A stretch of DNA of 64,000 nt from Candidatus Woesearchaeota archaeon (GTDB lineage: Archaea > Nanobdellota > Nanobdellia > Woesearchaeales > JAGVYF01). The first letter of the stretch is position 1. Every line of letters begins with the position of its first letter. Both the position numbers and the translations under genes were made by a program. The DNA is taken from positions 5,150 to 69,149 of the forward strand of contig JAGVYF010000003.1 in NCBI GenBank assembly GCA_018303425.1, written 5' to 3'. Shown one piece after another: positions 1 through 62,316 of the stretch. The notes under the pieces were generated by a model that did no database searches, was not told the origin of the DNA, and saw nothing but the letters and a program-made list of their open reading frames with translations.

Positions 1-1389
1 AGGCTCAAAAGTCCTATTCGCCAAACGTTTGTACCTACGAAATAAATCCAAGATTAAGTTAACAATTTTATCTTTTATATCCTTAATCTGCACAAGTATT
101 TGACTAAAAATGCTTACAACAAAACCGCCGCTTTCTTTTAAGATAATAATAACCTTGTTGGAAATCAGATTTGACCATATAAAGATACTTCTAAAAAGCT
201 CCGATATTCTTGAAAAAACCGCAAATCCTCCAAGAGCTTTGCAAGTTTGAACTTCAGGAATATTAATTTTAGGAATTAACTTTTTAACATTAATTTTAAT
301 ATCTTTAACGTTGTACTTGAAATCCTCTTTTTTATTTTCAACAGTCTTAACAGTATTCCTCTTTAACCTAAACATATCTCTTCTAATATATTTATAAGCT
401 CCTCTAATGACTTTAACTAATAAAAATGACAAAAACCCAAATAACACTTTAAAATCTAAAATGGATTGTTGAATTGCGGGTCTAACAATTAAATAAATTA
501 ATTCTGAAATTGAAAATACCTTATCCATTAAAGGTTTAACCCATAACTTGCAAAATCTTAAAATAATTTCAATAAACCGGATAAACTTATCAAATATTTT
601 GTTAATCTCTGGTTCAGAATTTATTACAGAATTTCGGCTTATTATTAATAAAAAAGATAAAACCAAAAATACAATAAAAAACGATAATGGTCCGTCACGT
701 AAATTATTATAACTCCTATTTGTTAAAATATCGACAACTGACATTGGCGCAACATTCTCTTTAGAAACATTAACATTTAATTCTCTGAAAAATTCAATAA
801 ATTTTGAATTAAAGTTCTCAATCAGATTTTCCCCGGCTAACAATAGAATATTATCAGATTTTAATTCAGGGATACTGCCATTCACCCCGCGTACCCAATC
901 TTTGACAGGTTTATCTATTAAAATAGCATCAATAACTAAATTTCTATCAGCAGATAACTTATTCTGGGTATTAATAAGCGCAATTTTTAATTTATGTACC
1001 CCCAGTCCTAAATCTGTACCAATGTCTCTTTTTATCAAAACTTCATCTTTAGAATACAAGTCATATACAGTTACATTATTATCAAGATAAACCCGAATAA
1101 CTCCTGCGCTTGGTCCTACTTTTAATGCTAATGAAATCACATGTCCTTCAAATTCTACTGATAAGCTAGACCCGGGCTGGTTTGAATAAAGGGCCGACCC
1201 ATCTAGATAATTACCATAAACAGTTGTCCATAACCCTTCCTTGGCGAAATCTAATTCATTTATATCTTTTATAGCAAAATTTGTAATTGTTGCTTGATAA
1301 TACGGGGAATACAGGAACAGAATAGCCAACATAGTAAAAACTAACACAAAGCTAACTTTCATAATCCGCTTATTCGTTTCACTAACCAT
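1..1389 (-). CDS. Membrane protein, N-terminal part of an ORF that runs off the window start (>=460 aa)
   Basis: Minus-strand translation from the ATG at 1389 is open to position 1 with no stop. The N-terminus has a hydrophobic signal/TM segment (MKVSFVLVFTMLAILFL) and a later TM cluster. The ATG overlaps the stop of the upstream gene (ATGGTTAG), which suggests translational coupling. The 902..1090 plus-strand ORF is probably spurious antisense. Confidence 0.45.
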   Translation of the reverse strand, partial: MVSETNKRIMKVSFVLVFTMLAILFLYSPYYQATITNFAIKDINELDFAKEGLWTTVYGNYLDGSALYSNQPGSSLSVEFEGHVISLALKVGPSAGVIRVYLDNNVTVYDLYSKDEVLIKRDIGTDLGLGVHKLKIALINTQNKLSADRNLVIDAILIDKPVKDWVRGVNGSIPELKSDNILLLAGENLIENFNSKFIEFFRELNVNVSKENVAPMSVVDILTNRSYNNLRDGPLSFFIVFLVLSFLLIISRNSVINSEPEINKIFDKFIRFIEIILRFCKLWVKPLMDKVFSISELIYLIVRPAIQQSILDFKVLFGFLSFLLVKVIRGAYKYIRRDMFRLKRNTVKTVENKKEDFKYNVKDIKINVKKLIPKINIPEVQTCKALGGFAVFSRISELFRSIFIWSNLISNKVIIILKESGGFVVSIFSQILVQIKDIKDKIVNLILDLFRRYKRLANRTFEP

Positions 1390-1987
1390 TCTTCTGTAAA
1401 CTCCTCCTATAAATTGTAGAAATTGTAGTTTCGCCCCTGTTTAATTTTTCAGCAATATTTCGATTTGAAAAACCTAAAGATTTTAAATAAAGAACAAGTG
1501 GCCCCAATAGTGAGTCTTTACCTTTAAAAATTAATAAAGGCACATTCAACTCGCTTTTAGTTATAGTAAAAACTTCAGCTTTTCTTTGTTTAGCTTTTTC
1601 ATATGCTAACCAAATACTGCGGTTATCTTTAATTAATAAATCTGAAATCTTCTTATTTGTATTATTTTTATTTTCTCTAAGATATTTTACAAGAGACTGC
1701 AACAAACTTAGCTTTCTCTCAGCAAATATCTCAATAGGCACCAAAATCTCATTTGACATCAAAAGTTTGGCTAAATCGTCAGAACTAATATTAAACTGAT
1801 TCTTAATAATCTCTAAAACTTCGATTAAAACACTTTCTTTCTCATTCTTAATCGTTTCAACAATTTTAAGAACCGCTTTGTTTTTAGCAAATTCAACGGC
1901 AGAAACAGTTTCGTTTTTTTGAGTCTTCAAATTACCTAAAAATTGTAGAATTAATTCTTTTTGTTGAATTTGAGGACTATTTACCAA
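1382..1987 (-). CDS. Putative transcriptional regulator with C-terminal LuxR/GerE-type HTH
   Basis: The C-terminus LKSLGFSNRNIAEKLNRGETTISTIYRRSLQK resembles a LuxR/GerE helix-turn-helix. The ORF is 201 aa. Confidence 0.4.
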   Translation of the reverse strand: MVNSPQIQQKELILQFLGNLKTQKNETVSAVEFAKNKAVLKIVETIKNEKESVLIEVLEIIKNQFNISSDDLAKLLMSNEILVPIEIFAERKLSLLQSLVKYLRENKNNTNKKISDLLIKDNRSIWLAYEKAKQRKAEVFTITKSELNVPLLIFKGKDSLLGPLVLYLKSLGFSNRNIAEKLNRGETTISTIYRRSLQKNG

Positions 1988-2316
1988 AAATTAATCTATT
2001 AAAGTAGTATTAATATATAAAAGTTGCTACTTTAAACTAATTTGGTAGATAAATAATCTATCAAGGTAGTATTAAATATAAGAAACGAGCATTAATCAAT
2101 CAAGACCAGACGCCACCAATGGAGCACATTGGTAGAAAATGTGATATTATGAACCGCCCGCAAGAAGTGAAGCTCCTGCGCACAGAACTTTCAGTTCTTA
2201 TAGAACCAAAGCTAACTTTTGATAAACAAACTTTCTAATTACAAAAGAAATAAAATTTAATATAAAAATGCGAAAATAAAACAGGCCATTGACAAAACTA
2301 TTTCAATGACACATTT

Positions 2317-2721
2317 TTATCTAATGGTAAAAATATTTTTGAGCTTTTTTGGAATACCCTGCAATACCAACAAAGCTAATGGAGCCGCCCAATTTGCCGT
2401 ACGTTCTACAAAATCCCAAATTGGATCTCCGGCGATTGGACGTGACAATGCTGTAGCAAACGCCCACAATACTGCATAGATTAGCACAAGCCTAATCGGC
2501 CAAATAAGCGCCAAAATGGCTACAACTATATCCATTGTTCCAATTATAGGTAGCATTACCCTGGCTGATGATTCAGAAAAACCAAATGCCGTAATAAGTG
2601 GTATCCACCCTTGCTTTATACCTAGCGCAAAAATTCCGTGTCCCAAAAAAGAACCAAATACCCCTATTCGTAAAATCCATTCCGCTATTTTTTGTTGTGA
2701 ATTCATAATACTAAATGTCAA
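2317..2721 (-). CDS. Small integral membrane protein, 4 predicted TM (DoxX-like?)
   Basis: Hydrophobic helices run throughout the 134-aa ORF. The antisense ORF 2516..2725 is rejected. Confidence 0.4.
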   Translation of the reverse strand: MTFSIMNSQQKIAEWILRIGVFGSFLGHGIFALGIKQGWIPLITAFGFSESSARVMLPIIGTMDIVVAILALIWPIRLVLIYAVLWAFATALSRPIAGDPIWDFVERTANWAAPLALLVLQGIPKKLKNIFTIR

Positions 2722-2853
2722 TTAGTGATTCTTTATATATTTTACTGAATTAACATCCAAACCCATTTCACTGAATTTAAGTATCCATATTAATAGACCA
2801 AAGGAAAAACACAATCTATTCAAAAGAGATAAATAAGAAAAAGGTAACAAAAT

Positions 2854-3288
2854 CTAAACTGGAGCCTTTTCCACAGTTTCTACTTTAGGCAGAGGTATAG
2901 GAGAAGGCAGATTTAAATCTCTACTTAGAATAATTGACTGAATATTGCACTTTGCAAGAGCAGTATTTAATACTTGTAAAGTCATTTCTTTTTCAAGATT
3001 TTTATTCTTTTTCCAACCATCTAAAGCTTTTTTAACTTTAACAGCATCTTCCAAGATTAATACTTCCCCCACTAAATCTATATGGGCTAATACATCCTTT
3101 AAATCACTTGCATAATTAACACCATAATCAAAAGTAACTCTTAAACCTGATTGCTTTTCTGTACCTAACTGTAAATCCTTAGATTCAACTTCTTTGATAA
3201 CAATGTTGTTATTTATACTGACTTTACCTTGTAACGCTTTATTTTTTTCAACTACAATTTTATTAAAATTAAATCCTACAACTGTCAT
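2854..3288 (-). CDS. Hypothetical protein
   Basis: A 144-aa ORF with coding-like composition and no recognisable motif. Confidence 0.35.
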   Translation of the reverse strand: MTVVGFNFNKIVVEKNKALQGKVSINNNIVIKEVESKDLQLGTEKQSGLRVTFDYGVNYASDLKDVLAHIDLVGEVLILEDAVKVKKALDGWKKNKNLEKEMTLQVLNTALAKCNIQSIILSRDLNLPSPIPLPKVETVEKAPV

Positions 3289-3381
3289 ATTAAAACCTCC
3301 CTAAACTTTAATCTAAAAAAGCATAATCTAGTATTTAAAGATTTAGATTATATTATAATTGTTATCTAACAAAATATATAA

Positions 3382-3873
3382 ATGCTGAATGCATTAAATA
3401 TATTAATGCTTGAGATATATTTTATTTTAGGACTTTTATCATTTGCGGGCATAATCCTGGGTCTGATATTAGGAATGATTGCTCCAGAAGAATTAAAACC
3501 TGGAGCTCCATGGTTTATCAAATTAAAAAATACAATATTTACATTATTAATATTAATATTATTATATTACAACATTTATAATCTTATAATAATACCATTA
3601 ATTATTTTCTTAATATTATACTGGTACCGAGGAACTTTAGGCGAAGAATCATATATGCTTGAGTATAGTATGATGGGTTCGCTATTTGGAATGGGATATT
3701 ATACCCCCGCCATACCTGAAATAATTGGATTGATTTTTATATATAAAATTACATCAGGAAGTTTGTTAATATACAAAAATAATAATTTCAATTTTTTAAT
3801 AAAATCAATTTGCTTAAGATTAATATTCTATATTTTGGGATTATTATTACCACTTATGTTTGCGAATGTGTAA
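3382..3873 (+). CDS. Hypothetical polytopic membrane protein
   Basis: 163 aa, very hydrophobic and Ile/Leu-rich. It overlaps the 3' end of carS on the opposite strand by about 27 nt. Confidence 0.3.
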   Translation: MLNALNILMLEIYFILGLLSFAGIILGLILGMIAPEELKPGAPWFIKLKNTIFTLLILILLYYNIYNLIIIPLIIFLILYWYRGTLGEESYMLEYSMMGSLFGMGYYTPAIPEIIGLIFIYKITSGSLLIYKNNNFNFLIKSICLRLIFYILGLLLPLMFANV

Positions 3874-4371
3874 AACAAATCCAACATAGCTTAATAAAAG
3901 TTTAAGAAAATAAGTAAAAACTACCATTAAAACAATCTGCAAATATGTAAATTTAATTATAAGGCTTGAAAATAAAATGGCTCCTAATACCGCATCAATT
4001 TGATCTGCAATAAAAAAATTATGCCCGGGAATAATATTTATTCTCCTCTTAATGAACGATTTAAATAAATCCCCAAACATGGCCCCAGTTGCAAGAAAAA
4101 GACCTAATAACACGCTATAATCCTGATATATGATAATACTGTTGATATTAATAACCTTCTGAAAATAAAACATTATAGTGCCAAATAGAATTGCAACCAA
4201 TATCCCCCTAAATGTTTTATGTGCCCCAAATAAAGAATTGCCCTCCAATTTTATCCCTAAGTCCAAAGGAAATTCTAAAGATTTCAATTTATTCCTAAAT
4301 AATAATGGCATAATATCTGCTATATAAACAGGAAATAAAAAATAAATCAATTTCAGACTTTCAGCTAACAT
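3847..4371 (-). CDS. carS: CDP-archaeol synthase (CDP-2,3-di-O-geranylgeranyl-sn-glycerol synthase)
   Basis: 174 aa with 5 TM. The motif GNSLFGAHKTFRGILVAILFG matches the CarS/DUF46 G-x-x-KT-x-EG signature. Confidence 0.6.
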   Translation of the reverse strand: MLAESLKLIYFLFPVYIADIMPLLFRNKLKSLEFPLDLGIKLEGNSLFGAHKTFRGILVAILFGTIMFYFQKVININSIIIYQDYSVLLGLFLATGAMFGDLFKSFIKRRINIIPGHNFFIADQIDAVLGAILFSSLIIKFTYLQIVLMVVFTYFLKLLLSYVGFVLHIRKHKW

Positions 4372-4425
4372 AGATTATTAAAAATATATTGCTTTAATAA
4401 ATCTTATCCTATATCTAGCGAAACG

Positions 4426-4434
4426 TTTATAAAT
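4426..4434 (+). promoter_or_regulatory. TATA box (TTTATAAAT) about 26 nt upstream of the tRNA-Asn 5' end
   Basis: Archaeal TATA consensus at the expected distance from the tRNA start. Confidence 0.3.
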
Positions 4435-4458
4435 GAAGCTCGGATTTCATAATTCAAT

Positions 4459-4604
4459 GTCTCCGTAGCTTAGCGGTGGAGCGTGCGGCTGTTAAATTGG
4501 CGATAAGATTAACTAAAACGTCAATTAAAGAAACCGCAAGGTCCCCAGTTCGAATATTGGCGCCAGATATTTTAGACGCCTGTGAGAAAGTCTGGGCGGA
4601 GACG
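4459..4604 (+). tRNA. tRNA-Asn (GTT) with two introns: 38 nt at canonical 37/38 and ~36 nt in the T-loop (59/60 region)
   Basis: Acceptor GTCTCCG/CGGAGAC. D-stem GCT/AGC. Anticodon stem TGCGG/CCGCA with loop CTGTTA[intron]A. T-stem CCCAG/CTGGG with loop TTCGAAT followed by a 36-nt insert. Discriminator G. CCA is not encoded. Confidence 0.6.
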
Positions 4605-4670
4605 TCAAAAATCTAAGATTTTTGATCGTGCACAGGATTTAAAATCCTGACACGTTTTTTATTTTCACAT

Positions 4671-4801
4671 GAGCTTGTAGCTTAGCCTGGTGGAGCGCAC
4701 GACTGATAACATTTTGTCAGAGATCGTGAGGTCCGGAGTTCAAATATTAACGCCTGAGGCAAAATGCTTCGAACGTCAGTGAGAAAATCTCCGCAAGCTC
4801 A
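4671..4801 (+). tRNA. tRNA-Ile (GAT) with two introns: 14 nt at 37/38 and ~43 nt in the T-loop
   Basis: Acceptor GAGCTTG/CAAGCTC. Anticodon stem CACGA/TCGTG with loop CTGATA[intron]A. T-stem CGGAG/CTCCG with loop TTCAAAT followed by a 43-nt insert. An oligo-T run follows the gene. Confidence 0.6.
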
Positions 4802-4853
4802 TTTTTTAAAATGATACACAAACTTTATAACAAATTACCCAAAAACTATTCTT

Positions 4854-6395
4854 ATGTCTATAAATATTCCTGAATTATGCAAAGATGCCTATATCAATAT
4901 TGCTTTAGACACTATTAGGCTAGGTAAACAAGCGCTAATTTTTACTAATTCAAAACCTGGCGCAGAAAAAAGCGCAGAAGAAATATCTAAAAAAAATAAA
5001 AATAACGAATTATCTGAACTTTCTGAACAAATCCTAAAAACACTGCCTAAACCGACTAAACAATGTGAAAGATTAGCTAAATGCGTTAAACATGGCATTG
5101 CGTTCCACCATTCAGGTTTGCACCCCAAACAAAAAGAAATAATTGAAAATGCTTTTCGGGACGGCACTATCAAAATTATCGCGTGTACACCTACACTTGC
5201 TGCCGGACTTGATATGCCTGCGTTTAGAACAATATTAAGAGAAGTCAAACGCTACACTAATACTGGCTATAACTGGATTCAAACCCTGGAATATTACCAA
5301 ATGGCTGGAAGAGCCGGACGTCCGGGTAAAGAAGATTATGGTGAAAGTATATTGATTGCCAATGACAAAAAACATTCGGAAGAATTACTTAACAGGTTCA
5401 TTTATGGTTCACCTGAAGACATTTTTTCAAAATTAGCCGTTGAACCTGTATTAAGAACATACATCCTTTCATTAATATCAAGTGGCTTTGTAAATTCAAA
5501 AAAAGAAATTATTGATTTCTTTTCTAAAACATTCTGGGCTTTTCAGTTTAGAGATTTGGATAAATTAATTTTCATAATCGAAAAAATGTTGCGCCTATTA
5601 ATAGATTTTAAATTCATCGAAACTTCAAATACAAATAATTTTTCAAGCATTGATGAGATAAACACAAAATTATACATGGCAACAGCCCTAGGTAAAAGAG
5701 TTGCAGAACTTTACATTGACCCATTAACAGCTAACCATATCCTTAATTGTTTAAGCCGGAACGATAACCCCTCTCCGCTGGGGTTACTACAAATGACATC
5801 GCACACTCTGGAGATGATGCCTTTATTAAAAGTAAAAATGAAAGAATTTGACAGCTACCAAAATGAAATAATTAGATACACTGAAGAATTGCTTGAACCA
5901 GAGCCAACAATCTATGATTATGAATACGACGAATTCCTTAATTCATTAAAAACAGCGCTATTCTTTAATGACTGGATTGAAGAAAATTATGAAGATTATC
6001 TTTTAGAAAAATATAATATTACTCCCGGGGCAGTGCACACAAAATTAACTATACTTGACTGGCTGCTTTATACCTCCGCCGAAATAGCAAACATTGCAAA
6101 TTTAAAATCAAGTATTAAGCACATCAACAAAGTTAGATTTAGGATAAAACATGGAATTAAAGAAGAATTAATTCCTCTTTGCAGATTAAATAATATCAGC
6201 AAGATAAGGGCACGTAAACTTTACAACAACGGAATCAAAGATTTAGGCGATATTAAGAAAGCTAACTTCCAAACATTAATCCAAATTTTGGGAGAAAAAA
6301 TTGCATTAAATATTAAAAGCCAAGTTGGACAAAAAATCGAACCTGAAGTAAAACCAACAAAACGTATTGGGCAGATGGGTTTAACCAAATACTGA
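4854..6395 (+). CDS. Hel308/Ski2-like DNA helicase, C-terminal half only (RecA2, winged helix, ratchet and HhH domains); the N-terminal DEAD/RecA1 domain is absent
   Basis: Motifs IV-VI are present: [51 protein letters not shown]. There is an in-frame stop at 4812 and the tRNA genes lie immediately upstream, so no Walker A/B domain can be encoded here. Confidence 0.65.
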
Positions 6396-7487
6396 TTCAA
6401 GAAAACCTTTTTTATTTTTAACTGTTTTATCAAATTCTTTCAACAAATCTTTCTGTTGTTTATTAAGTTTTGTAGGTATATCTATTACAATTTTAACATT
6501 CTGTGAACCTTTCCCATAGCCTTCTAAATTAGAAATTCCATATTCTTTCATTCTAAAAACAGTATTGCATTGAGTGCCTGCAGGGATAGTTAAGGAAGCA
6601 ACACCTTTCAAGGTTGGCACATCAACATTTGCGCCCATCACAGCCTGCGCATAACTAATAGGCAATTCTAAATAAATATCATCTCCCTCCCTCTTAAAAA
6701 TATCATGCTTTTGAACATTAATATATACATAAAGATCTCCTTTATTTCCTCCATTTATACCTGCTTCACCTTCGTTTTTAACTCTCAATCTCGAACCGTC
6801 ATGTATACCACCTGGAATTTCAATTTCAATCTCTCTTGTATTTCTTACTCTCCCATTTCCGCCGCAATTTGAACACGCTTTGCGAATAGTTTTACCATGC
6901 CCATTACAGTCATGGCAAGTAGATGATTGCGCAAATATTCCAAAAGGAGTTCTAACCTCGCTTTTAATTACACCTGAACCTTGACACAAACGGCAATTAA
7001 TAATATCCGAATCAGATTTAGCGCCAGTACCATGACAACTTTTACATGTTTCCATTCGGGGAATATTAATAGTTTTTTTCTTGCCAAACGCGGCATCTTC
7101 TAAATTGATAGTTATTTCAAATTCAATATCACTTCCCCTAACCGAAGAACTCTTCCTGCGCCTTTTTCCTCCAAATAATCCATCAAACATATCACCCAAA
7201 TCAAAATCAAACCCGAAATTTCCGCCTGAAAACCCTGAAAAATCAAACCCGCCCTGTCCTGAACTAAAATTAGTGTCAGCTGTGCCAAATTGATCATACT
7301 GCTGCCTTTTTTTATCATCACCCAATACAGATGCAGCTTCATTAATCTCTTTAAACTTTTCATCCGAATCACTCTCTTTATTCAAGTCTGGATGATATTG
7401 TTTAGCTAACTTTTTATAAGCCTTTTTAATCTCTTCTTTTGAAGCGTCTTTCCCTAACCCTAAAACTTTATAATAATCTTTGCCCAT
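6381..7487 (-). CDS. dnaJ: Chaperone DnaJ (Hsp40)
   Basis: J domain [31 protein letters not shown] Gly/Phe-rich linker follows. Four CxxCxGxG zinc-finger repeats are present. Confidence 0.9.
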
Positions 7488-8247
7488 TTTTTACACCAAA
7501 TATTTCTAAAATTTCCGATTCACCAGAATAAAGAAGTTCAGTTTTTATATCTGATAAGCCTTGTTTCTCCATATTATAATCCATTTCTCGAGCATAAACA
7601 TCCGCAAACCCTGAACAATTTGCATGTGAAATTAATAGTTTTCCGCCCGGTCTTAATATTCTAATCATATTTTGAAATTTATTCCCCATGTTAAAATCAT
7701 TATATTCATAGTCCCGTTCAACACAAGCAGATTCATGTATCATGTTTGAAACTAGAACCATATCAAATGCCTTACTAAATGGCGCAGCTAATAAATCTCC
7801 TTGGACTATCCCAATATTTTTACATCCATATTTTTTAGCTCTTTTTTCCAATTCTGATAATGCTATTGCTTGAACATCTAAAGCAACAAAATAAGTTCCA
7901 GGATTATTTAATGCAAGATACACTGTTTTAAGTCCAGTTCCTGAACCAACATCTAATACTTTTTCACGCCCTTTAACGCTTTTATCCAGATAAGGAAGAA
8001 TAACTTTCACGTCGCTAGCGCGAAAACAATCAACATTGCCAAACAAATTGCATCCATAAATCAAATTATACATTTCTCTTTCTAAAGGCACTAAATCACC
8101 TGACCTTGAACAAATTAACTTTTCAATTTGTGTCAATCTTTGTTCTACTGCGTCACCCATGCCTTTTTTATTCAAATCAACTAACTCCTCTAATGAAATC
8201 TGTTTAATGCCTTCATTCCCAAAATAATCACTTAGCGATATCGTCAT
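7468..8247 (-). CDS. Class I SAM-dependent methyltransferase
   Basis: Motif [17 protein letters not shown]. The gene sits between dnaK and dnaJ. Confidence 0.55.
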
Positions 8248-8271
8248 AAAAATAAAAATTAAGTAAAGCTA

Positions 8272-10167
8272 TTAAGCTTTACCTTTTTTATCATTTTTAA
8301 CTTTGAAATCTGCATCAACAACTTTTTCGCCTTTCTTTTCACTAAAAGCTTTGCTTCTGCGCCCAGAACCCTGTTCTTGGGCTTTAGATTCAGATTTAGT
8401 TTCGGCATCTTTTTTAGCATGTTGTTCCTGAGCAACTTTTTCGTACATTTGAGTTGCAGCTTCTTGTAAAGGTTTTTGGACTTCTTCAAGTTTTTTCTTA
8501 ATAGCCTCCACATTCTTTTCTTTGGCTTCCATTAACTTCTTTAGTTCCACAATGCCTTTCTTAGCTTCATCAAGTTTAGCTTGGTCAGCCTTCCCTTCCA
8601 TGTCTTTCAAAGTTTTTTCTGATGTGTAAATTAAAGCGTCAGCCTGATTAACAACTTCAACTTCTTCTCTTCTTCTAACATCGGTTTCAATGTTAGCTTC
8701 AGCTTCTTTTCTCATCTTCTCAATTTCTTCCTTTGAAAGATTTGAAGATGCAGTAATTGTAATGTTTTGTTGTTTACCGGTTCCAAGATCTTTTGCAGAT
8801 ACATTTACGATGCCATTTGCATCAATATCAAAGGTAACTTCAATCTGTGGTATCCCTCTTGGTGCTGGAGCAATTCCAACTAACTCAAATCTGCCTAATG
8901 TTTTATTATCAGCTGACATTGCCCTGTCTCCCTGCAATACATGAATACTTACAGCGGGTTGATTATCTGCGGCAGTTGAAAATACCTGTGACTTCTTTGA
9001 TGGAATTGTAGTGTTTCTTTCAATTAACTTTGTAAAAACACCCCCCAAAGTCTCAATTCCCAAATCAAGAGGTGTAACATCAAGTAATAAAACATCTTTA
9101 ACATCTCCCCCTAAAATACCCGCTTGAATAGCTGCGCCTACTGCAACAGCTTCATCGGGATTAACAGATTTATCTCCTTCCTTGCCGGTTATCTCTTTTA
9201 CAATAATTTGTACTGCGGGAATTCTTGTTGAACCTCCAACTAATAATACCTTATAGCCATCACTTGATTCTAAACCAGCATCTTTCAATGCTTTTTCTGT
9301 TGGAGCTTTTAATTTTTCAAGAATTTCTGAGATTAAATCTTCAAATTTAGCCCTGCTCAATTCAGTATTAAGATGCTTAGGACCAGACTGATCAGCTGTA
9401 ATAAAAGGCAAACTAATTGAAGCATTGACTTTTGTGCTTAATTCAATCTTAGCTTTTTCAGCAGCTTCCTTTAATCTTTGCAATGCTACTTTGTCTTCTC
9501 TTAAATCTACGCCATGAGACTTTTTAAATTCCGTTGCTAACCAGTCAATCAAAGCATCATCAATATCATCACCACCTAAATGGTTATTGCCTGAAGTTGC
9601 CTTAACTTCAAAAACACCTTCGCTTATTTCCAAAACAGATACATCAAATGTACCCCCACCAAAATCAAATACTAAAATAGTCTGATCCTGAGTTTTATCT
9701 AAACCATAAGCCAGCGCAGCAGCGGTTGGCTCATTAACAATTCTTTTAACATTCAAACCCGCAATTGCACCTGCGTCTTTTGTAGCTTGTCTTTGCGCAT
9801 CATTAAAATATGCCGGTACAGTAATAACTGCGTCAGTAATTTTAGTTCCTAAATAAGCTTCAGCATCTGTTTTTAATTTTTGTAAAATCATAGCTGAAAT
9901 CTCTTGGGGAGTGTACTCCTTACCCTCAATAATTACTTTGTGATTAGTGCCCATGTATCTCTTAATGCTCCTGACGGTGTTTTCAGGATGAACGATTGCC
10001 TGATTCCTTGCTACTTGACCAACAACTCTTTCACCGTTTTTAATACTAACAACACTAGGTGTAGTCCTAGCACCTTCTGCATTAGCAATAATTGTAGGTT
10101 TTCCGCCTTCCATTACAGCAACAGCTGAAAATGTAGTTCCTAAATCAATTCCTATTGTTTTTGCCAT
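8272..10167 (-). CDS. dnaK: Chaperone DnaK (Hsp70)
   Basis: [24 protein letters not shown] and other Hsp70 signatures. The start is placed at [10 protein letters not shown] (ATG 10167) rather than the longer ORF start at 10239. Confidence 0.95.
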
Positions 10168-10302
10168 TTTTTTCTTGCCTCCATGTGAGTTTATTATCTT
10201 AAATTCAGAATCACTAAAATACAAAAACTTCGAACACAAGTTCAGAGGTTTTTGTCATTTTAATTTCTTCCTTATGAATTCTTATCTTCTCATTGTAATT
10301 AA

Positions 10303-10692
10303 TTAACCGAGATACCTAGGAAATTCTCCAGTTTTACCCTCATTCCCTGAATTCTCACTCTTTAATTTTGGTTTTTCCTTTCGAGTCTCCTTTTCCATTT
10401 GTTTTATTGCTTTGGATTTCTCAATTTTACCAAACCTTTTTTCATATTTTTGGACCATGCCTGCCAATACTTCAGCTACTTGTTTTGCATGATAAGGTTC
10501 AAGCATTACGATATTATGTTTTAACTGCATAACTCTTGACCCATCATTTGTTCTAGGATCTATTCTTGGCGTTACACATCTAAAGTCAAATATGAATTGT
10601 GATGGATTAAAATTAATTGACATATCATGGCTAAAAAATGGTTCACCTTCTACAATTGAAAATTTAATTTGTTGTTCTTTTTGTTCTGTCAT
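10303..10692 (-). CDS. Hypothetical protein (DUF3467-like), in the dnaK operon
   Basis: 129 aa with a lysine-rich C-terminus. It lies between grpE and dnaK. Confidence 0.35.
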   Translation of the reverse strand: MTEQKEQQIKFSIVEGEPFFSHDMSINFNPSQFIFDFRCVTPRIDPRTNDGSRVMQLKHNIVMLEPYHAKQVAEVLAGMVQKYEKRFGKIEKSKAIKQMEKETRKEKPKLKSENSGNEGKTGEFPRYLG

Positions 10693-10702
10693 ATTTTTAC
10701 CT

Positions 10703-11209
10703 TTAATCTTTTTTACCTATTTTTACTTTTACGGGCCTTAAGACCTTATCATTAAGCTTGTAGCCTTTTTGCAGTTCTTCAAGTACAATATTGTCCTTAT
10801 CAGATTTTTCCTGCAATAAAGCTTCATGTAAATATGGATTAAACTCTTTATCTTTGGCATCAATTTTCTTTAAACCGATATCTTCTAATATTTTTACCAT
10901 TTGTTCATGAATCATTGCAATGCCCGCAATAAAATCATCATTTAAGCATTTGTTCTGTAATGCTAAATCAAAATTATCAATAATTGGTAAAAGTTTAAAC
11001 ATTAAGCTTGAATTTGCAAATTTCATAAATTCTTGCTTTTCATTATCAGTGCGTTTTTTGTAATTTTCAAATTCTGCTTGAACTCTTTGTAATGTTAGTA
11101 TCAAATCTTTTTTTTCAAAATCTGATTTTTCCTGTAATTCCTTTAACAGCTTTTGCATATCTTCAACTGGAGTTTTTAGTTCAGCAGGATTATCTTTTTT
11201 TTGTTTCAT
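10703..11209 (-). CDS. grpE: Nucleotide exchange factor GrpE
   Basis: FENYKKRTDNEKQ, LLPIIDNFDLAL and a C-terminal beta domain. The start is trimmed to MKQKKD (ATG 11209). Confidence 0.8.
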   Translation of the reverse strand: MKQKKDNPAELKTPVEDMQKLLKELQEKSDFEKKDLILTLQRVQAEFENYKKRTDNEKQEFMKFANSSLMFKLLPIIDNFDLALQNKCLNDDFIAGIAMIHEQMVKILEDIGLKKIDAKDKEFNPYLHEALLQEKSDKDNIVLEELQKGYKLNDKVLRPVKVKIGKKD

Positions 11210-11321
11210 TTTAAGCACCGTTGTTGAGTTTAGCTCAACTATGTTGAATTGGATATACCGACTTGTATATAAACTTTTCGGCAAAAGTATTTATATTGAT
11301 TCAAGTATATTGATTTTAGCC

Positions 11322-11872: not shown

Positions 11873-12235
11873 ATGTTTAATAAAAACAACAAAGGTCAAG
11901 GTCTTTCTATTAATACAATCATTCTGGCTGCATTGGCAGTAGTTGTACTGGTTGTGCTCATTGCGATATTTACGGGCAGATTGGGAATGTTTAGTAGTGT
12001 ACTTAGTTCAACTAATGCCGAAAAAACTAAAGATTCTGCATTAAATAGTTGTATTCCTATGGATAAATATTATCAAAATATAGAAATTGCACAAATTGAA
12101 TATAACAAAGATGAAAGTACAAGAGAAAATTTAGACAAAGAGATCCAATTAAAGAATGATGAACTTGCAAAGTGTAAAGGAAATAATATAGTAAATGCTT
12201 GTGCTTCAAGTAAGTGTCAATGGGTAGGTAACTAA
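11873..12235 (+). CDS. Archaeal type IV pilin-like protein with class III signal peptide
   Basis: N-terminus MFNKNNKGQGLS followed by a 22-aa hydrophobic helix, as in a PibD/FlaK-processed prepilin. Cys residues lie in the C-terminal domain. Confidence 0.5.
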   Translation: MFNKNNKGQGLSINTIILAALAVVVLVVLIAIFTGRLGMFSSVLSSTNAEKTKDSALNSCIPMDKYYQNIEIAQIEYNKDESTRENLDKEIQLKNDELAKCKGNNIVNACASSKCQWVGN

Positions 12236-12333
12236 ACTCATTCCTTTTTCTTTTTTATTCTTTCTAATACACTAATTCTGTAATAAAATCGTAAAGCTTA
12301 AATATAAACTTAACTTTACAAGTATAAACTAAA

Positions 12334-12873
12334 ATGGATACATATAAACTTGACTTTACTATACTAGAACTAGAGATATTTACTTATCTAAGTATTAGAA
12401 CCGGAGAAATGTTTAGCCAGAGAGATATTGCAAAAGCGCTTAAAGTATCTCCAACAGCAGTTTCAAATGCGATAAAGAATCTTACAATAAAAGATTTAGT
12501 AAAATTAAACAAAACAAAAACAATCAATTTTATATCATTTAACAGAGATAACCATAAAGCGATTGAGCTTAAAAAAGTTGAAAATCTAAAACAGATTTAT
12601 ATTTCAGGATTTTCGGATTTTTTGGAAGAAAAACTTGCAGGATCCACAATAATATTATTTGGTTCCTACTCTAGAGGGGAAGACACAAAAACATCAGATA
12701 TAGATATAGCCATAATTGGAAGAAAAGAAAAAACGCTTAGTCTAGAAAAGTTTGAAAAAACTCTCAATAGAAAGATAAATTTAAATTTTTATGATTCGTT
12801 AAGGGGGATACACAAACATTTAAAAAATAACATATTAAATGGCATTATAATACATGGTAGTGTTGAACTATAA
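12334..12873 (+). CDS. Minimal nucleotidyltransferase (MNT/MntA-like antitoxin) with N-terminal wHTH
   Basis: GSYSRGEDTKTSDIDIAI is the GS-x-DxD NTase signature. Confidence 0.65.
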   Translation: MDTYKLDFTILELEIFTYLSIRTGEMFSQRDIAKALKVSPTAVSNAIKNLTIKDLVKLNKTKTINFISFNRDNHKAIELKKVENLKQIYISGFSDFLEEKLAGSTIILFGSYSRGEDTKTSDIDIAIIGRKEKTLSLEKFEKTLNRKINLNFYDSLRGIHKHLKNNILNGIIIHGSVEL

Positions 12874-13304
12874 TGGTTATAAAAATATTTAAAGAATACA
12901 TTAATGAAGGAACCATCCGACAAATTTCACCAGATAAGGAAAGAGCACAAGATTTATTTCTCGAATCCGAAAGAAAGTTCAATCTTTTAGAAGAAACCAT
13001 ACAAAAGATGGACATACGTGATGATAATGCAAATGATTATGTTGAATATTGTTACAACATAATAATGTTCTTAATAAGAGCAAAAATGCTGGAAAAAGGT
13101 TATATAAGTTCAGGACAAGGAGCTCATGAAGCAGAAGTAGCTTTTGCAAGAAATTTTAAATTAAATGATTCAGAGGTTCGACTTTTAAACCAACTAAGAT
13201 ATTTCAGGAATGGTATTCTTTACTATGGCAAAAGGTTTGATAAAGAATATGCAGAAAAGATTATTAAATTTACACACAAGATATACCAATTGATTAAAAA
13301 ATAG
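12873..13304 (+). CDS. HEPN-domain protein (HepT-like toxin partner of the MNT)
   Basis: Overlaps the MNT stop by 1 nt. 143 aa, helical. A paralogue downstream shares the LRYFRNG-LYYG block. Confidence 0.5.
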   Translation: MVIKIFKEYINEGTIRQISPDKERAQDLFLESERKFNLLEETIQKMDIRDDNANDYVEYCYNIIMFLIRAKMLEKGYISSGQGAHEAEVAFARNFKLNDSEVRLLNQLRYFRNGILYYGKRFDKEYAEKIIKFTHKIYQLIKK

Positions 13305-13411
13305 TATATTAGTTTCTTTTCTTCGTTCTAAATTTTTTAGGGTTTGAAAGTGTCATATTTCTTAATACTTCAAAAACATATCAACGCAATGTATGTAAAA
13401 AATCAGATGCA

Positions 13412-13530
13412 AAAAGTTAGCTTCACTTCCGTGACGACTAATCGCTTCGCTTATCTAACAAGCTGGCTTGTTTTTTCATTATATATGAATAGCCGAACCG
13501 AAGCTAACTTTTGATAGGCAGACTTTCTAC
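13412..13530. repeat. MITE-like repeat family A, copy 1 (terminal IRs AAAAGTTAGCTTC / GAAGCTAACTTTT)
   Basis: Homologous copy at 39527..39640 and a half copy at 2208..2240. It lies in the convergent intergenic region between HEPN and Fic. Confidence 0.5.
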
Positions 13531-13636
13531 GTACAACGCAATTATCAAACTCACAACTAAACTAAATTAATCGCGATAAATTAAATATAGAATATTTTTA
13601 CCCTTTATTTTACCTAACTAGATATTAAAGGGTAAA

Positions 13637-14665
13637 CTAAAGAAATAAACGCCAATAATTGCTTACAAATTCATTGGCAATAAATTCAACAAGTTCTTTG
13701 TATTTTACAACATCAAAATCATCAATAGTAAGCTTATCTGCTTGATTAAGAGCAGAAAGATATTTTGCTCTTGTTTTTTGGCTTATTATAATTGGAGGAT
13801 AACCATGACTCAAAAATATATAATTCATCAAGATTCTGCCTGTTCTTCCATTTCCATCCATAAAAGGATGAATTTTTTCAAATTTATGATGAAATATTGC
13901 AGCAAGAACAAGTGGGTGTAATTTTGATTTATAATCACTATAACGCTTCAAAAGCATTTTCATATCAGCAAACACATAAGGTGAAGGAGTTGATTCAAAT
14001 TGAGACTTAAATACCCTCACGTCTGTAGTTCTATAACCTATCCTGCTATCAATATTTTTTAAAAGTGACTGATGAATTTCACAAATAAATTCATGATTAA
14101 TATCTTTAGGAAGATTTTCAAAAAGATTCAAAAATACAGTTTCAGTATTTTGCAAATCATATACTTCTCTTAGAGTCTTATCCTTTGGAGTTAAATGTTC
14201 TAAAAATAGTTTTTTTGCCTCACGCAAAGTAATTGTATTTCCTTCTATAGATGCAGTATTAAATGCAAATTCAATAACAAAATTTTTTATTATTTCAGCT
14301 TTAGTCTCTTTATCCAATTTTTCAAAAACACTATGCCAATGGAGCTTGCATGCCTCAATATTTTCCAGCAAATGTTTTGACAGATATGAGTTTGATTTAA
14401 ACTTCATTGACTTTACTTTTTCAATAAACCTGTTTGATTCGATAAATCGGTTTAAAGTTTTATATGCCTTTCTAATATCTGAAGAATATTTCGCAGGCAT
14501 TTTTGAAAGTTTTTCTTTAACTTCATCAATATTTAAACCCAAATAAACAATATCTTTAGTTACGAGACGTTTTCCTTGTTTTAAAGAAGCTCTCAAATAG
14601 TAATAGGATCTTCCCCCTTTAATTTTTACATAAATATATACCATTATATTCAAAAATTTAAACAA
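13637..14665 (-). CDS. Fic/DOC family protein (putative AMPylase)
   Basis: Canonical Fic motif HPFMDGNGRTGRILMNY. Confidence 0.8.
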   Translation of the reverse strand: MFKFLNIMVYIYVKIKGGRSYYYLRASLKQGKRLVTKDIVYLGLNIDEVKEKLSKMPAKYSSDIRKAYKTLNRFIESNRFIEKVKSMKFKSNSYLSKHLLENIEACKLHWHSVFEKLDKETKAEIIKNFVIEFAFNTASIEGNTITLREAKKLFLEHLTPKDKTLREVYDLQNTETVFLNLFENLPKDINHEFICEIHQSLLKNIDSRIGYRTTDVRVFKSQFESTPSPYVFADMKMLLKRYSDYKSKLHPLVLAAIFHHKFEKIHPFMDGNGRTGRILMNYIFLSHGYPPIIISQKTRAKYLSALNQADKLTIDDFDVVKYKELVEFIANEFVSNYWRLFL

Positions 14666-14930
14666 CTATATAAACTTACCCTTTATTTTTCAATATTTTT
14701 ATTTAAAGGGTAAACATCAATTTGATACTAAACTAACTCTATGCAACATGCCAATTTGTACGTGATAGCTAACGTCAATTCGTGAAGTTATCTATCCACA
14801 TTCTATGTAAGCTTAACTTACATTATATTAGAATCATAACAACCCCTGAATTTACATTTCACCGAAAATTATATAAAATTGAGTTAATGTCAGTTAACTA
14901 TGGTAAATATATAAACTCAAGTTAACAGGT

Positions 14931-15446
14931 TTGCAACAAGAAATACTAAGACTTCTATTCATTAAATCGGGCAAGTCCCTAAATCAATTACAAATTGCCC
15001 GTTTTTTAAAAGTCAGCCAACCAGCAATTATGAAATCCTTACCCAAATTAGGACAAGAAGAATATATTAAGTCTTCTCAAGATAAAGAAACTAAAAGATG
15101 GTCAATTGGATTAAACCGAAATAATCCCCAAATTATGCAATTAAAAAAAATTGACAATTTGAGATTAATTTACGAATCAAATCTGGCAGATTATTTAGAA
15201 GAAAAATTTGCTGAAACAACAATTATCTTATTTGGAAGTTACTCAAGAGGAGAAGATATAATCAATTCTGATATTGATATTGCAATAATTGGTAGAAAAG
15301 ATAAATTGATTGACTTATCGAGTTATGAAAACATTTTAGAACGAAAAATCAATATAAATTGTTATGACTCATTGAAAAATATAAATAAACACTTAAAAGA
15401 AAATTTATTCAATGGCATTTTACTTGCAGGCGGGTTTGAGATATGA
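14931..15446 (+). CDS. Minimal nucleotidyltransferase (MNT) with N-terminal wHTH; paralogue of 12334..12873
   Basis: GSYSRGEDIINSDIDIAI. It aligns with the first MNT over its whole length. Confidence 0.65.
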   Translation: MQQEILRLLFIKSGKSLNQLQIARFLKVSQPAIMKSLPKLGQEEYIKSSQDKETKRWSIGLNRNNPQIMQLKKIDNLRLIYESNLADYLEEKFAETTIILFGSYSRGEDIINSDIDIAIIGRKDKLIDLSSYENILERKININCYDSLKNINKHLKENLFNGILLAGGFEI

Positions 15447-15885
15447 AAGCGATACTAAATTTTGGAGAATTTATAAAAGAAAATATTGTTAAAATACAAA
15501 GCGTTGACAGTTCAAGGGCAAATTTTCTCATCCATGAATCTATAAATAGTTATAATAATCTTAAAGAAAAAATTGAAAAAATAAAACTAACAGATAACAA
15601 TGCAAATAATTTCATAAAATCAGGTTACGATATAATTATGGAAATAATTCGAGCAAAATGCTTCTAAAAGGTTATAATGCATCAGGTTTTAGTGCGCATA
15701 AAGCAGAAGTATCATATATGAGACTTCTTAAATTCAATGAAAAAGATGTGCAATTTGCAAATCAGTTAAGATATTTCAGAAACGGAATGTTATATTATGG
15801 GACTAGTTTAGATAAAGAATATGCAAAAGAAGTAATAAAATTTACAAAAAAGGTTTATAATACTCCCAAGATTGACAATCTCTAA
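15443..15885 (+). pseudogene. HEPN-domain gene disrupted by a -1 frameshift in a poly-A run (two ORFs 15443..15667 and 15658..15885)
   Basis: Joined, the two ORFs read IIRAK|MLLKGYNASGFSAHKAEV, collinear with the intact paralogue LIRAKMLEKGYISSGQGAHEAEV. The junction is GCAAAATGC (4 A where 5 are expected). Confidence 0.5.
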
Positions 15886-39504: not shown

Positions 39505-39526
39505 ACCAATAGAAAATCAATTACAA

Positions 39527-39640
39527 GAAAGTTAGCTTCACTCCTATGAGAGCTAACCATTTTGTTTATTCAACAAATATAGTTTGTCTTTTGCCATAGA
39601 TGAATAGCTTAACAGAAGCTAATTTTTGATAAACCGGCTT
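39527..39640. repeat. MITE-like repeat family A, copy 2
   Basis: GAAAGTTAGCTTCAC ... GAAGCTAATTTTTGATAAACCGGCTTTCTAA. About 75% identical to the copy at 13412..13530. Confidence 0.5.
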
Positions 39641-39717
39641 TCTAAATATTATTCTATGTAGTATCAGGACATTATTCTAAGCAAATTTTATATAGTCCAA
39701 ATAGAAGATATAACTAA

Positions 39718-61693: not shown

Positions 61694-62064
61694 AAAAATT
61701 AAATTTTTATACTTTTTACATACTGCCGATTATTCTTTATTGTTCATTAATCTTTTATTATTCATCTCAACCGATTATTTCAGGACCATTAGGAACTCAA
61801 TTAATAAATGACAAACTTAAACATGCAACAGCATACTTAATCCTTGCAGGACTAACATTTCGGGCAGTGCAACAAACAAATTATAAAAAATATTCATACT
61901 TATTTGCAATAATATTTGCAACTTTATATGGTATATTGGATGAATATCGCCAATCATTTGTACCCGGAAGAATAATGTCAATTTATGATATGCTGGCTAA
62001 CTTCATCGGAAGTTCATTAATTTTAATTAGACTTAAAAAAGTAGATAAGCGGGCCCAAAGATGA
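61690..62064 (+). CDS. VanZ-like membrane protein
   Basis: DEYRQSFVPGRIMSIYDMLANFIGS matches the VanZ family block. 4 TM. Overlaps the leuS stop by 4 nt. Confidence 0.55.
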   Translation: MKKLNFYTFYILPIILYCSLIFYYSSQPIISGPLGTQLINDKLKHATAYLILAGLTFRAVQQTNYKKYSYLFAIIFATLYGILDEYRQSFVPGRIMSIYDMLANFIGSSLILIRLKKVDKRAQR

Positions 62065-62078
62065 ATATAAACAAAAAA

Positions 62079-62316
62079 GATTAGCTACCTTAACTCTTTC
62101 TCAATTCTGCTACCCTCTGAACATCAATATTTAAACTTATTGCTGCTTCCGTCAGGACCTGACAAATTTCATAAAAACATCGATCCCAAAGGACAAAATC
62201 TCATTGTACAAGTTAAGACTAAACTTTAAGCATATATCGCTCTTTGGGCTTCGATCCCACCATATAGCCCGTTTGTGGTGACAGGCAAGGGCTAACTACC
62301 CAATCTAGCTTACCTA
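62079..62316 (-). ncRNA. Signal recognition particle RNA (7S/SRP RNA), approximate ends
   Basis: Minus strand TTTGTCAGGTCC-TGAC-GGAAGCAGCAATAAG matches the domain IV (helix 8) consensus GUCAGGUCC-GGAA-GGAAGCAGCACUAAG. The 5' and 3' termini can pair (GGTAAGCTA / TAGCTAATC). TATA-like TTTTTAAATAAA lies upstream. Oligo-T follows. Confidence 0.55.

Follow-up and report, generated by a model that had tools for sequence, protein, structure and literature searches.

What does the cluster of putative toxin-antitoxin genes in this Woesearchaeota-like archaeon encode, and has the HEPN gene of its second gene pair really been lost? The window, i.e., the whole analysed stretch of 64,000 nucleotides of contig JAGVYF010000003.1, contains at positions 11873–15885 an islet in which open reading frame (ORF) calls place a pilin-like gene, a pair of genes for a nucleotidyltransferase (NTase) and a HEPN-like protein (pair 1; NT1 and HEPN1), a Fic gene in the opposite orientation, and a second NTase/HEPN pair (pair 2; NT2 and HEPN2). 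All of these genes, which had been proposed in an initial annotation made from the sequence alone, were found in place, and the proposed paralogy of the two pairs was borne out as well, the NTases being 49% and the HEPNs 50% identical. The reading that we consider probable is that of two paralogous operons, each coding for an NTase fused to a winged helix-turn-helix (wHTH) domain and for its HEPN partner, of which one is intact and the other is a pseudo-operon, with an independent Fic gene located between them.

Pair 2 is a pseudo-operon

Based on protein and DNA alignments with orthologs, NT2 (14900–15446, plus strand) is a disrupted ortholog of a wHTH-NTase conserved in DPANN archaea. It matches Pfam NTP_transf_2 (E-value, 2.3e-9), a MarR-type wHTH, and the PADLOC profile PDC-M05A (E-value, 1.7e-16), and its GSx10DxD motif reads GSYSRGEDIINSDID. 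The orthologs are 182 amino acids (aa) long and start with ATGGTAAATATATATAAAC (MVNIYKLKLT), whereas the window reads ATGGTAAATATATAAAC at 14900 and is 2 nt short in an (AT) run (14907–14913), so that the ancestral ATG is followed by MVNI and a stop codon. The residual ORF begins either at TTG 14931 (171 aa) or at ATG 15030 (138 aa, with the HTH gone); gene callers chose the latter start, thereby dropping the HTH. This frameshift at the 5′ end of NT2 is absent from the initial annotation.

HEPN2 (15443–15885, plus strand), an ortholog of the conserved DPANN HEPN, is split into ORFs of 74 aa (15443–15667) and 75 aa (15658–15885). At the break, the window reads gcaaaatg, with four A residues (A4, 15655–15658), as against gcaaaaatg (A5) in HEPN1 and in all of the orthologs. 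For comparison with natural populations, a set of 21 contigs was used, which carry 35 variant sites in total. The A4 allele was present in 18/18 independent contigs spanning the HEPN2 site and A5 in none of them (0/18); these 18 are 99.5–100% identical to the window and stem from ENA, JGI and Logan assemblies made from different samples and by different assemblers. The loss of a single A, as noted initially, is therefore genuine; the 2-nt deletion in NT2 was likewise found in 20/20 contigs. The 75-aa C-terminal fragment of HEPN2 is recorded in 33 blocks of public assemblies, and exact look-ups of HEPN1 and of this fragment returned zero strains with an intact pair 2 and zero strains without Fic, the gene arrangement of the islet being uniform in all contigs found in this way. 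Among 5.8 billion protein clusters, no match to the repaired HEPN2 exceeded 76% identity, which indicates that the intact allele has not been assembled anywhere.

Since both NT2 and HEPN2 are frameshifted, pair 2 (14900–15885) is a pseudo-operon. It is an ortholog of the most conserved DPANN clade of such pairs, and both of its indels lie in simple-sequence runs and are fixed in the natural population. Its remaining sequence suggests mildly relaxed constraint. The repaired HEPN2 departs from its relatives at 13 of the 101 columns that are at least 80% conserved (median, 5; 4 of 120 relatives are equally deviant), has lost the otherwise invariant Glu of GAHEAE, and matches the PADLOC profile PDC-M05B with an E-value of 1.5e-3. 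NT2 shows five departures at columns conserved to at least 90%, as compared to a median of two, and two of its three population single-nucleotide polymorphisms (SNPs) are non-synonymous, one of them changing Gly to Glu in GSYSRGED.

The NTase–HEPN family and its possible function

Copy 1 (12334–13304) is intact. NT1 (12334–12873, plus strand) is a protein of 179 aa, in which Pfam and PADLOC profiles identify a MarR-like wHTH (MarR_2; E-value, 4.2e-6) and a minimal nucleotidyltransferase (MNT) domain (NTP_transf_2, PF01909; E-value, 1.5e-11) with an intact GSx10DxD motif (GSYSRGEDTKTSDID); the E-value to PDC-M05A is 6.6e-14. Among solved structures, MntA (5yep; E-value, 5e-6) is the closest to the NTase. 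HEPN1 (12873–13304, plus strand; 143 aa) follows with a 4-nt overlap, ATGA. It has a HEPN fold with H85 and R112-N-G-I-L-Y117-Y118-G, scores 21.2 bits against the Pfam HEPN family (PF05168), just under the cut-off of 22, and matches PDC-M05B with an E-value of 4.7e-5. Pair 1 represents a sister clade of pair 2, being about 50% identical to pair 2 and 72–79% identical to its own nearest relatives.

The family was surveyed in 84 loci from other genomes (designated by L numbers below), with motifs counted over 82 NTases and 82 HEPNs. For the repaired HEPN2, 560 matches were obtained, the best 120 of which are 143–156 aa long and 66–75% identical. The NTase precedes the HEPN in 84/84 of the other loci, the 4-nt overlap is found in 86 of 90 pairs, and 81 of the 82 NTases carry GSx10DxD. 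The motif R-N-G-x-x-Y-Y-G was seen in 77 of the 82 HEPNs, and other invariant residues, including H85, E86, E88 and R93, belong to the preceding helix. The Rx4-6H motif, which the initial annotation had expected, is not the motif of this family: neither Arg has a His 4–6 residues after it, be it in HEPN1, in the repaired HEPN2 or in 77 of the 82 relatives, and thus a HepT-type RNase toxin is not indicated. The affiliation with known HEPN families is distant. None of 29 HEPN relatives reached the PF05168 threshold, HEPN1 alone coming near; there was no match to DUF86 (PF01934) or NTase_sub_bind (PF08780); a PDB sequence search with the HEPN profile and with HEPN1 alone gave no relevant solved structure; and a comparison of the family with a neighbouring PF05168-like protein by hhalign gave no significant score. 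By fold, the HEPN has HepT structures among its best matches.

The genes are conserved, yet fragments and truncations of HEPN are widespread, and it follows that the HEPN gene has been lost repeatedly. In a library of representatives at 50% identity, 42 of the best 150 HEPN matches are full length, and at least 37 representatives are N-terminal parts with out-of-frame tails. Among the genomic copies, 2–3 of 82 are broken, and the number of pairs at a locus varies between 0 and 2 or more. In two other lineages (P0296 and P0308), the HEPN ends precisely behind RAK, at the GCAAAAA run that is frameshifted in the window; the DNA beyond this point is unrelated, and the NTase upstream is intact. These truncated genes lie in L189–L191 (802–1059 in L189) and L192–L194 (2476–2733 in L192). 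A recurrent break hotspot at RAK|M was considered and rejected: the HEPN breaks are scattered over positions 48–128, so that the site is at most a mild hotspot. The upstream NTase gene of L192 was called as 562 aa.

A further conserved feature of the operons is a direct repeat of 16–20 nt, one copy of which lies over the TATA-like box (TATATAAACTnAAnTTnA) and the other 40 nt downstream, over NTase codons 2–9. In NT1, the two copies of about 20 nt (12299–12319, TAAATATAAACTTAACTTTAC, and 12339–12359, TACATATAAACTTGACTTTAC; plus strand) are placed in exactly this way, over the TATA-like box and over codons 2–9, 40 nt apart. In NT2 (14870–14888, TATATAAAATTGAGTTAAT, and 14907–14926, ATATATAAACTCAAGTTAAC; plus strand), their spacing has been shortened by the 2-nt deletion. 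The −40 spacing is kept in 79 of 87 orthologous loci, and the copies are identical at a median of 14/16 positions, as compared to 10/16 for control 16-mers from the same gene. In the simplest reading, the repeat would be a candidate operator for the fused wHTH.

According to the literature, Class II HEPN/MNT modules consist of a PF05168 HEPN beside a PF01909 NTase and are mainly archaeal (Makarova 2009; Yao et al. 2020, PMC7641770); their MNT keeps GSX10DXD and their HEPN has no RX4H and keeps a conserved Tyr, and they are listed as biochemically uncharacterised, with an unproven toxin-antitoxin role (PMC7641770). The pairs described here resemble these modules in the MNT-then-HEPN operon, the GSX10DXD motif, the HEPN with Tyr and without RX4H, and their archaeal hosts. 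They differ in the N-terminal MarR-like wHTH of the NTase, in a HEPN that falls just below (HEPN1) or well below (the relatives) the PF05168 threshold, and in being far more conserved and largely confined to DPANN. With Type VII (Class I) HepT/MntA systems the pairs share the gene order, GSx10DxD, a helical-bundle HEPN, and a Tyr beside the motif Arg that could accept AMP. Unlike HepT, however, their HEPN has R-N-G-x-x-Y-Y-G in place of R-x4-H-x-Y, without the catalytic His and without a DUF86 or NTase_sub_bind match; the NTase is wHTH-fused and scores below the cut-off of 60 bits against NCBIfam MntA_antitoxin (36.1 bits for NT1 and 29.8 bits for NT2), and toxicity and AMPylation would be assigned by analogy only.

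Adjacent genes matching PDC-M05A and PDC-M05B are also the mark of the PADLOC candidate system PDC-M05, and the M05A profile spans the wHTH as well. The M05B matches are weak, however, and the context here is mostly housekeeping; the assignment was made from profile matches. PDC-M05 is archaeal-enriched with an unconfirmed antiviral role, and DPANN are enriched in SoFic and several such candidate systems, as was reported in a 2026 survey (PMC12988326). A DPANN-specific, unusually conserved MNT/HEPN cluster, cls.004259 (NEQ050), found "typically in house-keeping context", was described by Makarova et al. (2019, PMC6393860). Compared by description only, it is similar to the present pairs in its MNT and HEPN, its DPANN hosts, its unusual conservation and its housekeeping context, whereas it is described as an MNT-HEPN fusion and two overlapping genes are found here. 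As part of the reading considered probable above, the pair would belong to the Class II HEPN/MNT modules, as a variant with a wHTH fused to its NTase, and to the PADLOC candidate PDC-M05. As to the initial proposal of a toxin-antitoxin or defence islet, the gene families do match PADLOC PDC-M05A/B, PDC-S04 and SoFic, but neither the present analysis nor the literature (PMC7641770, PMC12988326, PMC6393860) proves that the pair is a toxin-antitoxin or defence system at all.

On this reading, the HEPN is translationally coupled to the NTase through the ATGA overlap, and the wHTH would autoregulate the operon by binding the direct repeats that cover the TATA box and the initial codons. The GSx10DxD NTase is expected to nucleotidylate its partner HEPN, probably by AMPylation, and the modified residue would probably be one invariant Tyr of R-N-G-x-x-Y-Y-G, by analogy with the action of MntA on HepT. 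The HEPN, having no His of the Rx4-6H type, is probably not a HepT-type RNase. The locus represents a clean, population-verified loss of a Class II HEPN/MNT (PDC-M05-type) operon by two simple-sequence indels, with a diverged paralog kept, and at least one copy of a very conserved DPANN pair is dispensable. The family motif can now be given as R-N-G-x-x-Y-Y-G together with H-E-x-E, not Rx4-6H, and this motif and the conserved candidate autoregulatory operator offer handles for the first biochemistry on Class II modules. Fic, NTase and HEPN all belong to already catalogued candidate defence or toxin-antitoxin families; the finding is real and largely ordinary.

Several points weigh against this reading. 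Neither the AMPylation of Tyr117/118 nor the binding of DNA by the wHTH goes beyond inference, and the sequence evidence for the HEPN is weak. Translation of NT2 from TTG 14931 is still conceivable, and the halves of HEPN2 overlap (ATG 15658; TAA 15665–15667), so that there may be residual expression. An identity of 66–75% across many DPANN lineages is unusually high conservation, and mostly housekeeping neighbours are atypical of toxin-antitoxin or defence genes. The neighbours in 42 other loci are heterogeneous (112 Pfam families, each found in at most 6 of 150 neighbours); most often the pair has another NTase beside it, many others are housekeeping genes (AspRS, exosome, enolase, proteasome, MgtE, FEN1, Trm5), and a few are restriction-modification genes.

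These last observations are the core of the strongest alternative, which we regard as possible but rather unlikely, namely that the pair is a conserved DPANN housekeeping two-subunit NTase (of the KNTase or HI0073/HI0074 type) and not a toxin-antitoxin or defence system. The HEPN would then serve as the substrate-binding subunit, the wHTH would tune expression, and the window would record the ordinary loss of a redundant paralog. Apart from the conservation and the neighbours (AspRS, exosome, enolase, proteasome, FEN1 and Trm5 among them), it is favoured by the DPANN MNT/HEPN cluster that Makarova et al. found in a housekeeping context (PMC6393860), by the absence of the RNase His, and by the absence of HEPN-family relatives from IMG/VR. 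The frequency of disrupted copies (at least 37 fragments, 2–3 of 82 broken, two truncated lineages), on the other hand, argues against essentiality, and the varying copy number also speaks against a housekeeping role. So do the best sequence relative of the NTase, which is the MntA antitoxin, the derivation of PDC-M05 by PADLOC from embedding in defence islands, and the cargo in L016. In that locus (1–6473), which comes from a related genome, genes for a DUF2779 protein and an N6/N4 DNA methyltransferase and three further ORFs of unknown nature are enclosed between a type-2 and a type-1 pair, both pointing in one direction. Paralogous pairs may delimit a spot of variable cargo, which is Fic in the window and methyltransferase/DUF2779 in L016.

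It is improbable that HEPN2 is still functional, either as a two-piece protein made by coupled re-initiation at ATG 15658 or through a −1 slip on the A run, the break being regulatory or phase-variable. The C-terminal ORF does start at the conserved Met of the family (RAK|M) with a 10-nt overlap with the upstream stop codon, tRNA-Lys could conceivably re-pair one base back on AAAA, and breaks at or near RAK|M recur in the P0296 and P0308 lineages. The run, however, is only 4 nt long, no stimulatory structure was found, and the absence of A5 from all 18 contigs gives no sign of switching. What is seen in P0296 and P0308 is a replacement of the 3′ half by unrelated DNA and not a split, and breaks in the family occur over positions 48–128, not at this site alone. 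In addition, the coupled upstream NT2 has lost its own start, and the repaired HEPN2 is without an otherwise invariant Glu.

The interpretation offered in the initial annotation, in which the frameshift inactivates a toxin and leaves an orphan antitoxin behind, is very improbable. It agrees with the MNT-then-HEPN order and overlap, the intact GSx10DxD, MntA as the best solved relative of the NTase, and HepT structures among the best fold matches. RX4HXY, however, is absent from all members of the family, the NCBIfam MntA scores are 36 and 30 bits against a cut-off of 60, DUF86 and NTase_sub_bind are not matched, and NT2, the supposed orphan, is itself disrupted, having no ancestral start after the 2-nt deletion. 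A sequencing or assembly artefact, also raised initially with regard to the homopolymer at the site, can practically be dismissed, considering that A4 occurs in 18/18 contigs of differing samples, assemblers and archives, that the run is only 4–5 nt long, and that the same operon carries a second, independent indel.

A more distant second type of pair, composed of an NTase of 189–193 aa and a HEPN-like protein of 164–166 aa, adjoins the conserved pair in L012 (2848–3910) and L190 (246–1296). It was found in archaeon GW2011_AR20 and in another lineage, and its HEPN carries R-x4-Y(-Y), not R-x4-H.

The Fic gene and its flanking repeats

The Fic gene (13637–14644, minus strand) codes for a protein of 335 aa from ATG 14644, or 342 aa from TTG 14665, and matches Pfam Fic with an E-value of 7.7e-23. 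The catalytic motif HxFx(D/E)GNGRxxR (HPFMDGNGRTGR) is intact, and H259, P260, F261, D263, G264, N265, G266, R267, G269 and R270 are invariant in 44 orthologs, the alignments used for invariant columns comprising 38–44 sequences; the degeneration considered in the initial annotation was not seen. An inhibitory motif, T130-x-x-x-E134-G135 (NT[TA]SIEGN; NTASIEGN in the window), with invariant E134, G135 and N136, lies within the helix 112–133/140–149 of an AlphaFold2 (AF2) model. This model (pLDDT, i.e., predicted local distance difference test, 91) has an N-terminal three-stranded beta-sheet (residues 2–36) before the helical core. The best solved matches are BT_2513 (3cuc), FICD/HYPE, C. elegans Fic-1 and C. 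difficile Fic (top Foldseek E-values, 1e-13 to 1e-12), with SoFic (3eqx/3zcn; E-value, ~5e-6) being more distant. PADLOC assigned the protein to PDC-S04 (E-value, 1.5e-37) and SoFic (E-value, 1.5e-29), and the NCBIfam equivalog level for SoFic was not reached (ProtAdlyltaseSoFic, 46.5 bits; cut-off, 550).

The protein is similar to class II Fics (FICD/HYPE, BT_2513, SoFic) in the catalytic motif and in the N-terminal inhibitory helix with (S/T)xxxE(G/N). It differs from the solved ones in the additional three-stranded sheet at residues 2–36, which they do not cover, and from SoFic and others in belonging to its own conserved DPANN clade of 330–335 aa proteins. Judged by its motifs and predicted structure, Fic is a self-inhibited class II, FICD/SoFic-like AMP-transferase and not a class I FicT toxin needing a separate antitoxin.

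Within the Fic clade, 1692 matches at E-values of at most 1e-10 were obtained, the best of them with 55–64% identity; a metagenome scan with the Fic alignment was saturated by generic Fic patterns and yielded only about eight close orthologs. The orthologs are solitary genes amid housekeeping neighbours, and a Fic gene adjoins the NTase–HEPN pair in 3/84 other loci. As the Fic genes of those loci are distant ones, the juxtaposition seen in the window is local. Fic is an independent gene and not a partner of the pair, and the idea that they form a functional unit does not hold. Fic is located about 2.4 kb from grpE-dnaK-dnaJ (window about 5900–11284), and FICD/HYPE AMPylates the Hsp70 BiP; this proximity is probably a coincidence, the orthologs elsewhere being located away from dnaK.

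Palindromes occur on both sides of Fic, where none (0) would be expected by chance. In the promoter region (14666–14713, minus strand), the palindrome (14676–14713) is immediately followed by a TATA-like GTTTATATAG about 30 nt before the ATG; a direct-repeat copy of it, TTACCCTTTA-N18-TAAAGGGTAA (13598–13635), abuts the Fic stop codon. Six other Fic orthologs (L096–L101) are preceded by the layout T(T/C)ACCC-N20-26-GGGTA with (A/T)TTTATA(A/T)A, and the palindrome arms vary between genomes on both sides together, e.g., CCCACTACA/TGTAGTGGG in L101. Neither IMG/VR nor any of the unrelated loci contained the palindrome, and searches of IMG/VR for Fic gave only generic cores at ~30% identity. The predicted N-terminal beta-sheet domain could be the DNA-binding partner of the palindrome. 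A reading of the palindrome as an integron attC site was rejected, with misfitting core sites and no integrase.

Furthermore, direct repeats of local sequence, 14–112 nt long, bracket Fic in 7/7 loci with usable flanks (the window, L096, L097, L098, L099, L100 and L106), and in every case the rank among 551 control genes is about the 98th percentile or higher. In L100, as in the window, the repeat consists of the palindrome. It is 112 nt long in L096 (3731–3841/5009–5120) and 24 nt long in L099; in L097 it is a degenerate tRNA 3′ end, and in L098 it comprises 55 nt of the 3′ end of the upstream iPGM gene (−178..−124/+108..+162 relative to Fic). In appearance, these repeats resemble an integration signature or scar; no recombinase in the ~1.2-kb Fic unit, empty site or viral copy was found.

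The observations on Fic and on the pairs could be joined in a wider reading, which we consider unlikely. DPANN Fic would be a single-gene mobile cassette, with an N-terminal DNA-binding beta-sheet and a cognate promoter palindrome, that integrates into host genes at their 3′ ends and leaves att-like direct repeats. The duplicated NTase–HEPN operons would be landing pads taking up variable cargo, Fic here and the methyltransferase/DUF2779 set in L016. As a related part of this reading, the conserved NTase–HEPN(Tyr) pair would be an AMPylation switch of importance to DPANN biology, its effector being something other than an RNase. Current views are not overturned by the locus, and the Fic direct repeats are the only part of it that could lead somewhere new.

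Setting of the islet, intergenic element and pilin-like gene

The islet is bordered by a wHTH regulator adjoining grpE-dnaK-dnaJ on one side and by a CCG/FAD-binding oxidoreductase operon on the other. Its G–C content is 27.9%, as compared to 31.4% for the whole window; in a local comparison, values of 26–29% were obtained for the islet and 33–37% for the flanks. The homologs of the islet genes were found in metagenome-assembled genomes of Woesearchaeota, Nanoarchaeota and other DPANN, and the window carries an archaeal signal recognition particle RNA (62043–62315) and an intron-bearing tRNA. It is a low-GC accessory islet of a Woesearchaeota-like DPANN archaeon. In one contig of the population set (L003, 5836–9789), the stretch corresponding to window positions 13396–15546 (Fic and NT2) is present twice in tandem, with SNP-ridden junctions, and the ends of contigs L183, L188 and L001 coincide with these junctions. 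This tandem duplication is either a structural variant of the population or an assembly/scaffolding artefact.

The MITE-like repeat (miniature inverted-repeat transposable element) of the initial annotation is present, but resolves into two different things, the Fic-flanking palindrome and an intergenic element of about 135 nt (13396–13530) with an 18-nt inverted-repeat closing stem (13412–13429/13495–13512). A 73%-identical copy of the latter lies at 39510–39644 and a partial one at 2203–2243. The copies share a 13–18-bp closing stem and a 3′ tail (GAAGCTAACTTTTGATAAAC..ACTTTCTA) and have a variable interior, and on the minus strand the islet copy folds with z = −4.1. Rfam searches of the intergenic regions identified no family, either at gathering thresholds or at E-values of up to 5. 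The element may represent either a MITE or a family of small RNA genes.

The pilin-like gene (11873..12235, plus strand; 363 nt) codes for a protein of 120 aa with a positively charged N-terminus, followed by KGQGLSINTIILAALAVVVLVVLIAIFTGR and a variable, Cys-containing C-terminal half. The charged N-terminus, the [KR]G/Q context and the hydrophobic helix form a class III signal peptide-type sequence pattern. No Pfam, PADLOC or NCBIfam profile was matched, and none of the 84 other loci has a homolog beside the pair. There are 11 homologs, five of which are full length, the others covering only the N-terminal ~36% at 64–80% identity; the N-terminal sequence KxQGLSINTIIIAAIAVVVLVVLIAIFTGR is kept in a handful of DPANN proteins with differing C-termini. 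The gene carries 20 of the 35 population variant sites, in its C-terminal half (window 12060–12214), and one haplotype (L008/L186) has 15 clustered changes with compensating +1/−1 indels. The region has its hypervariable spot in this gene, in keeping with a surface protein.

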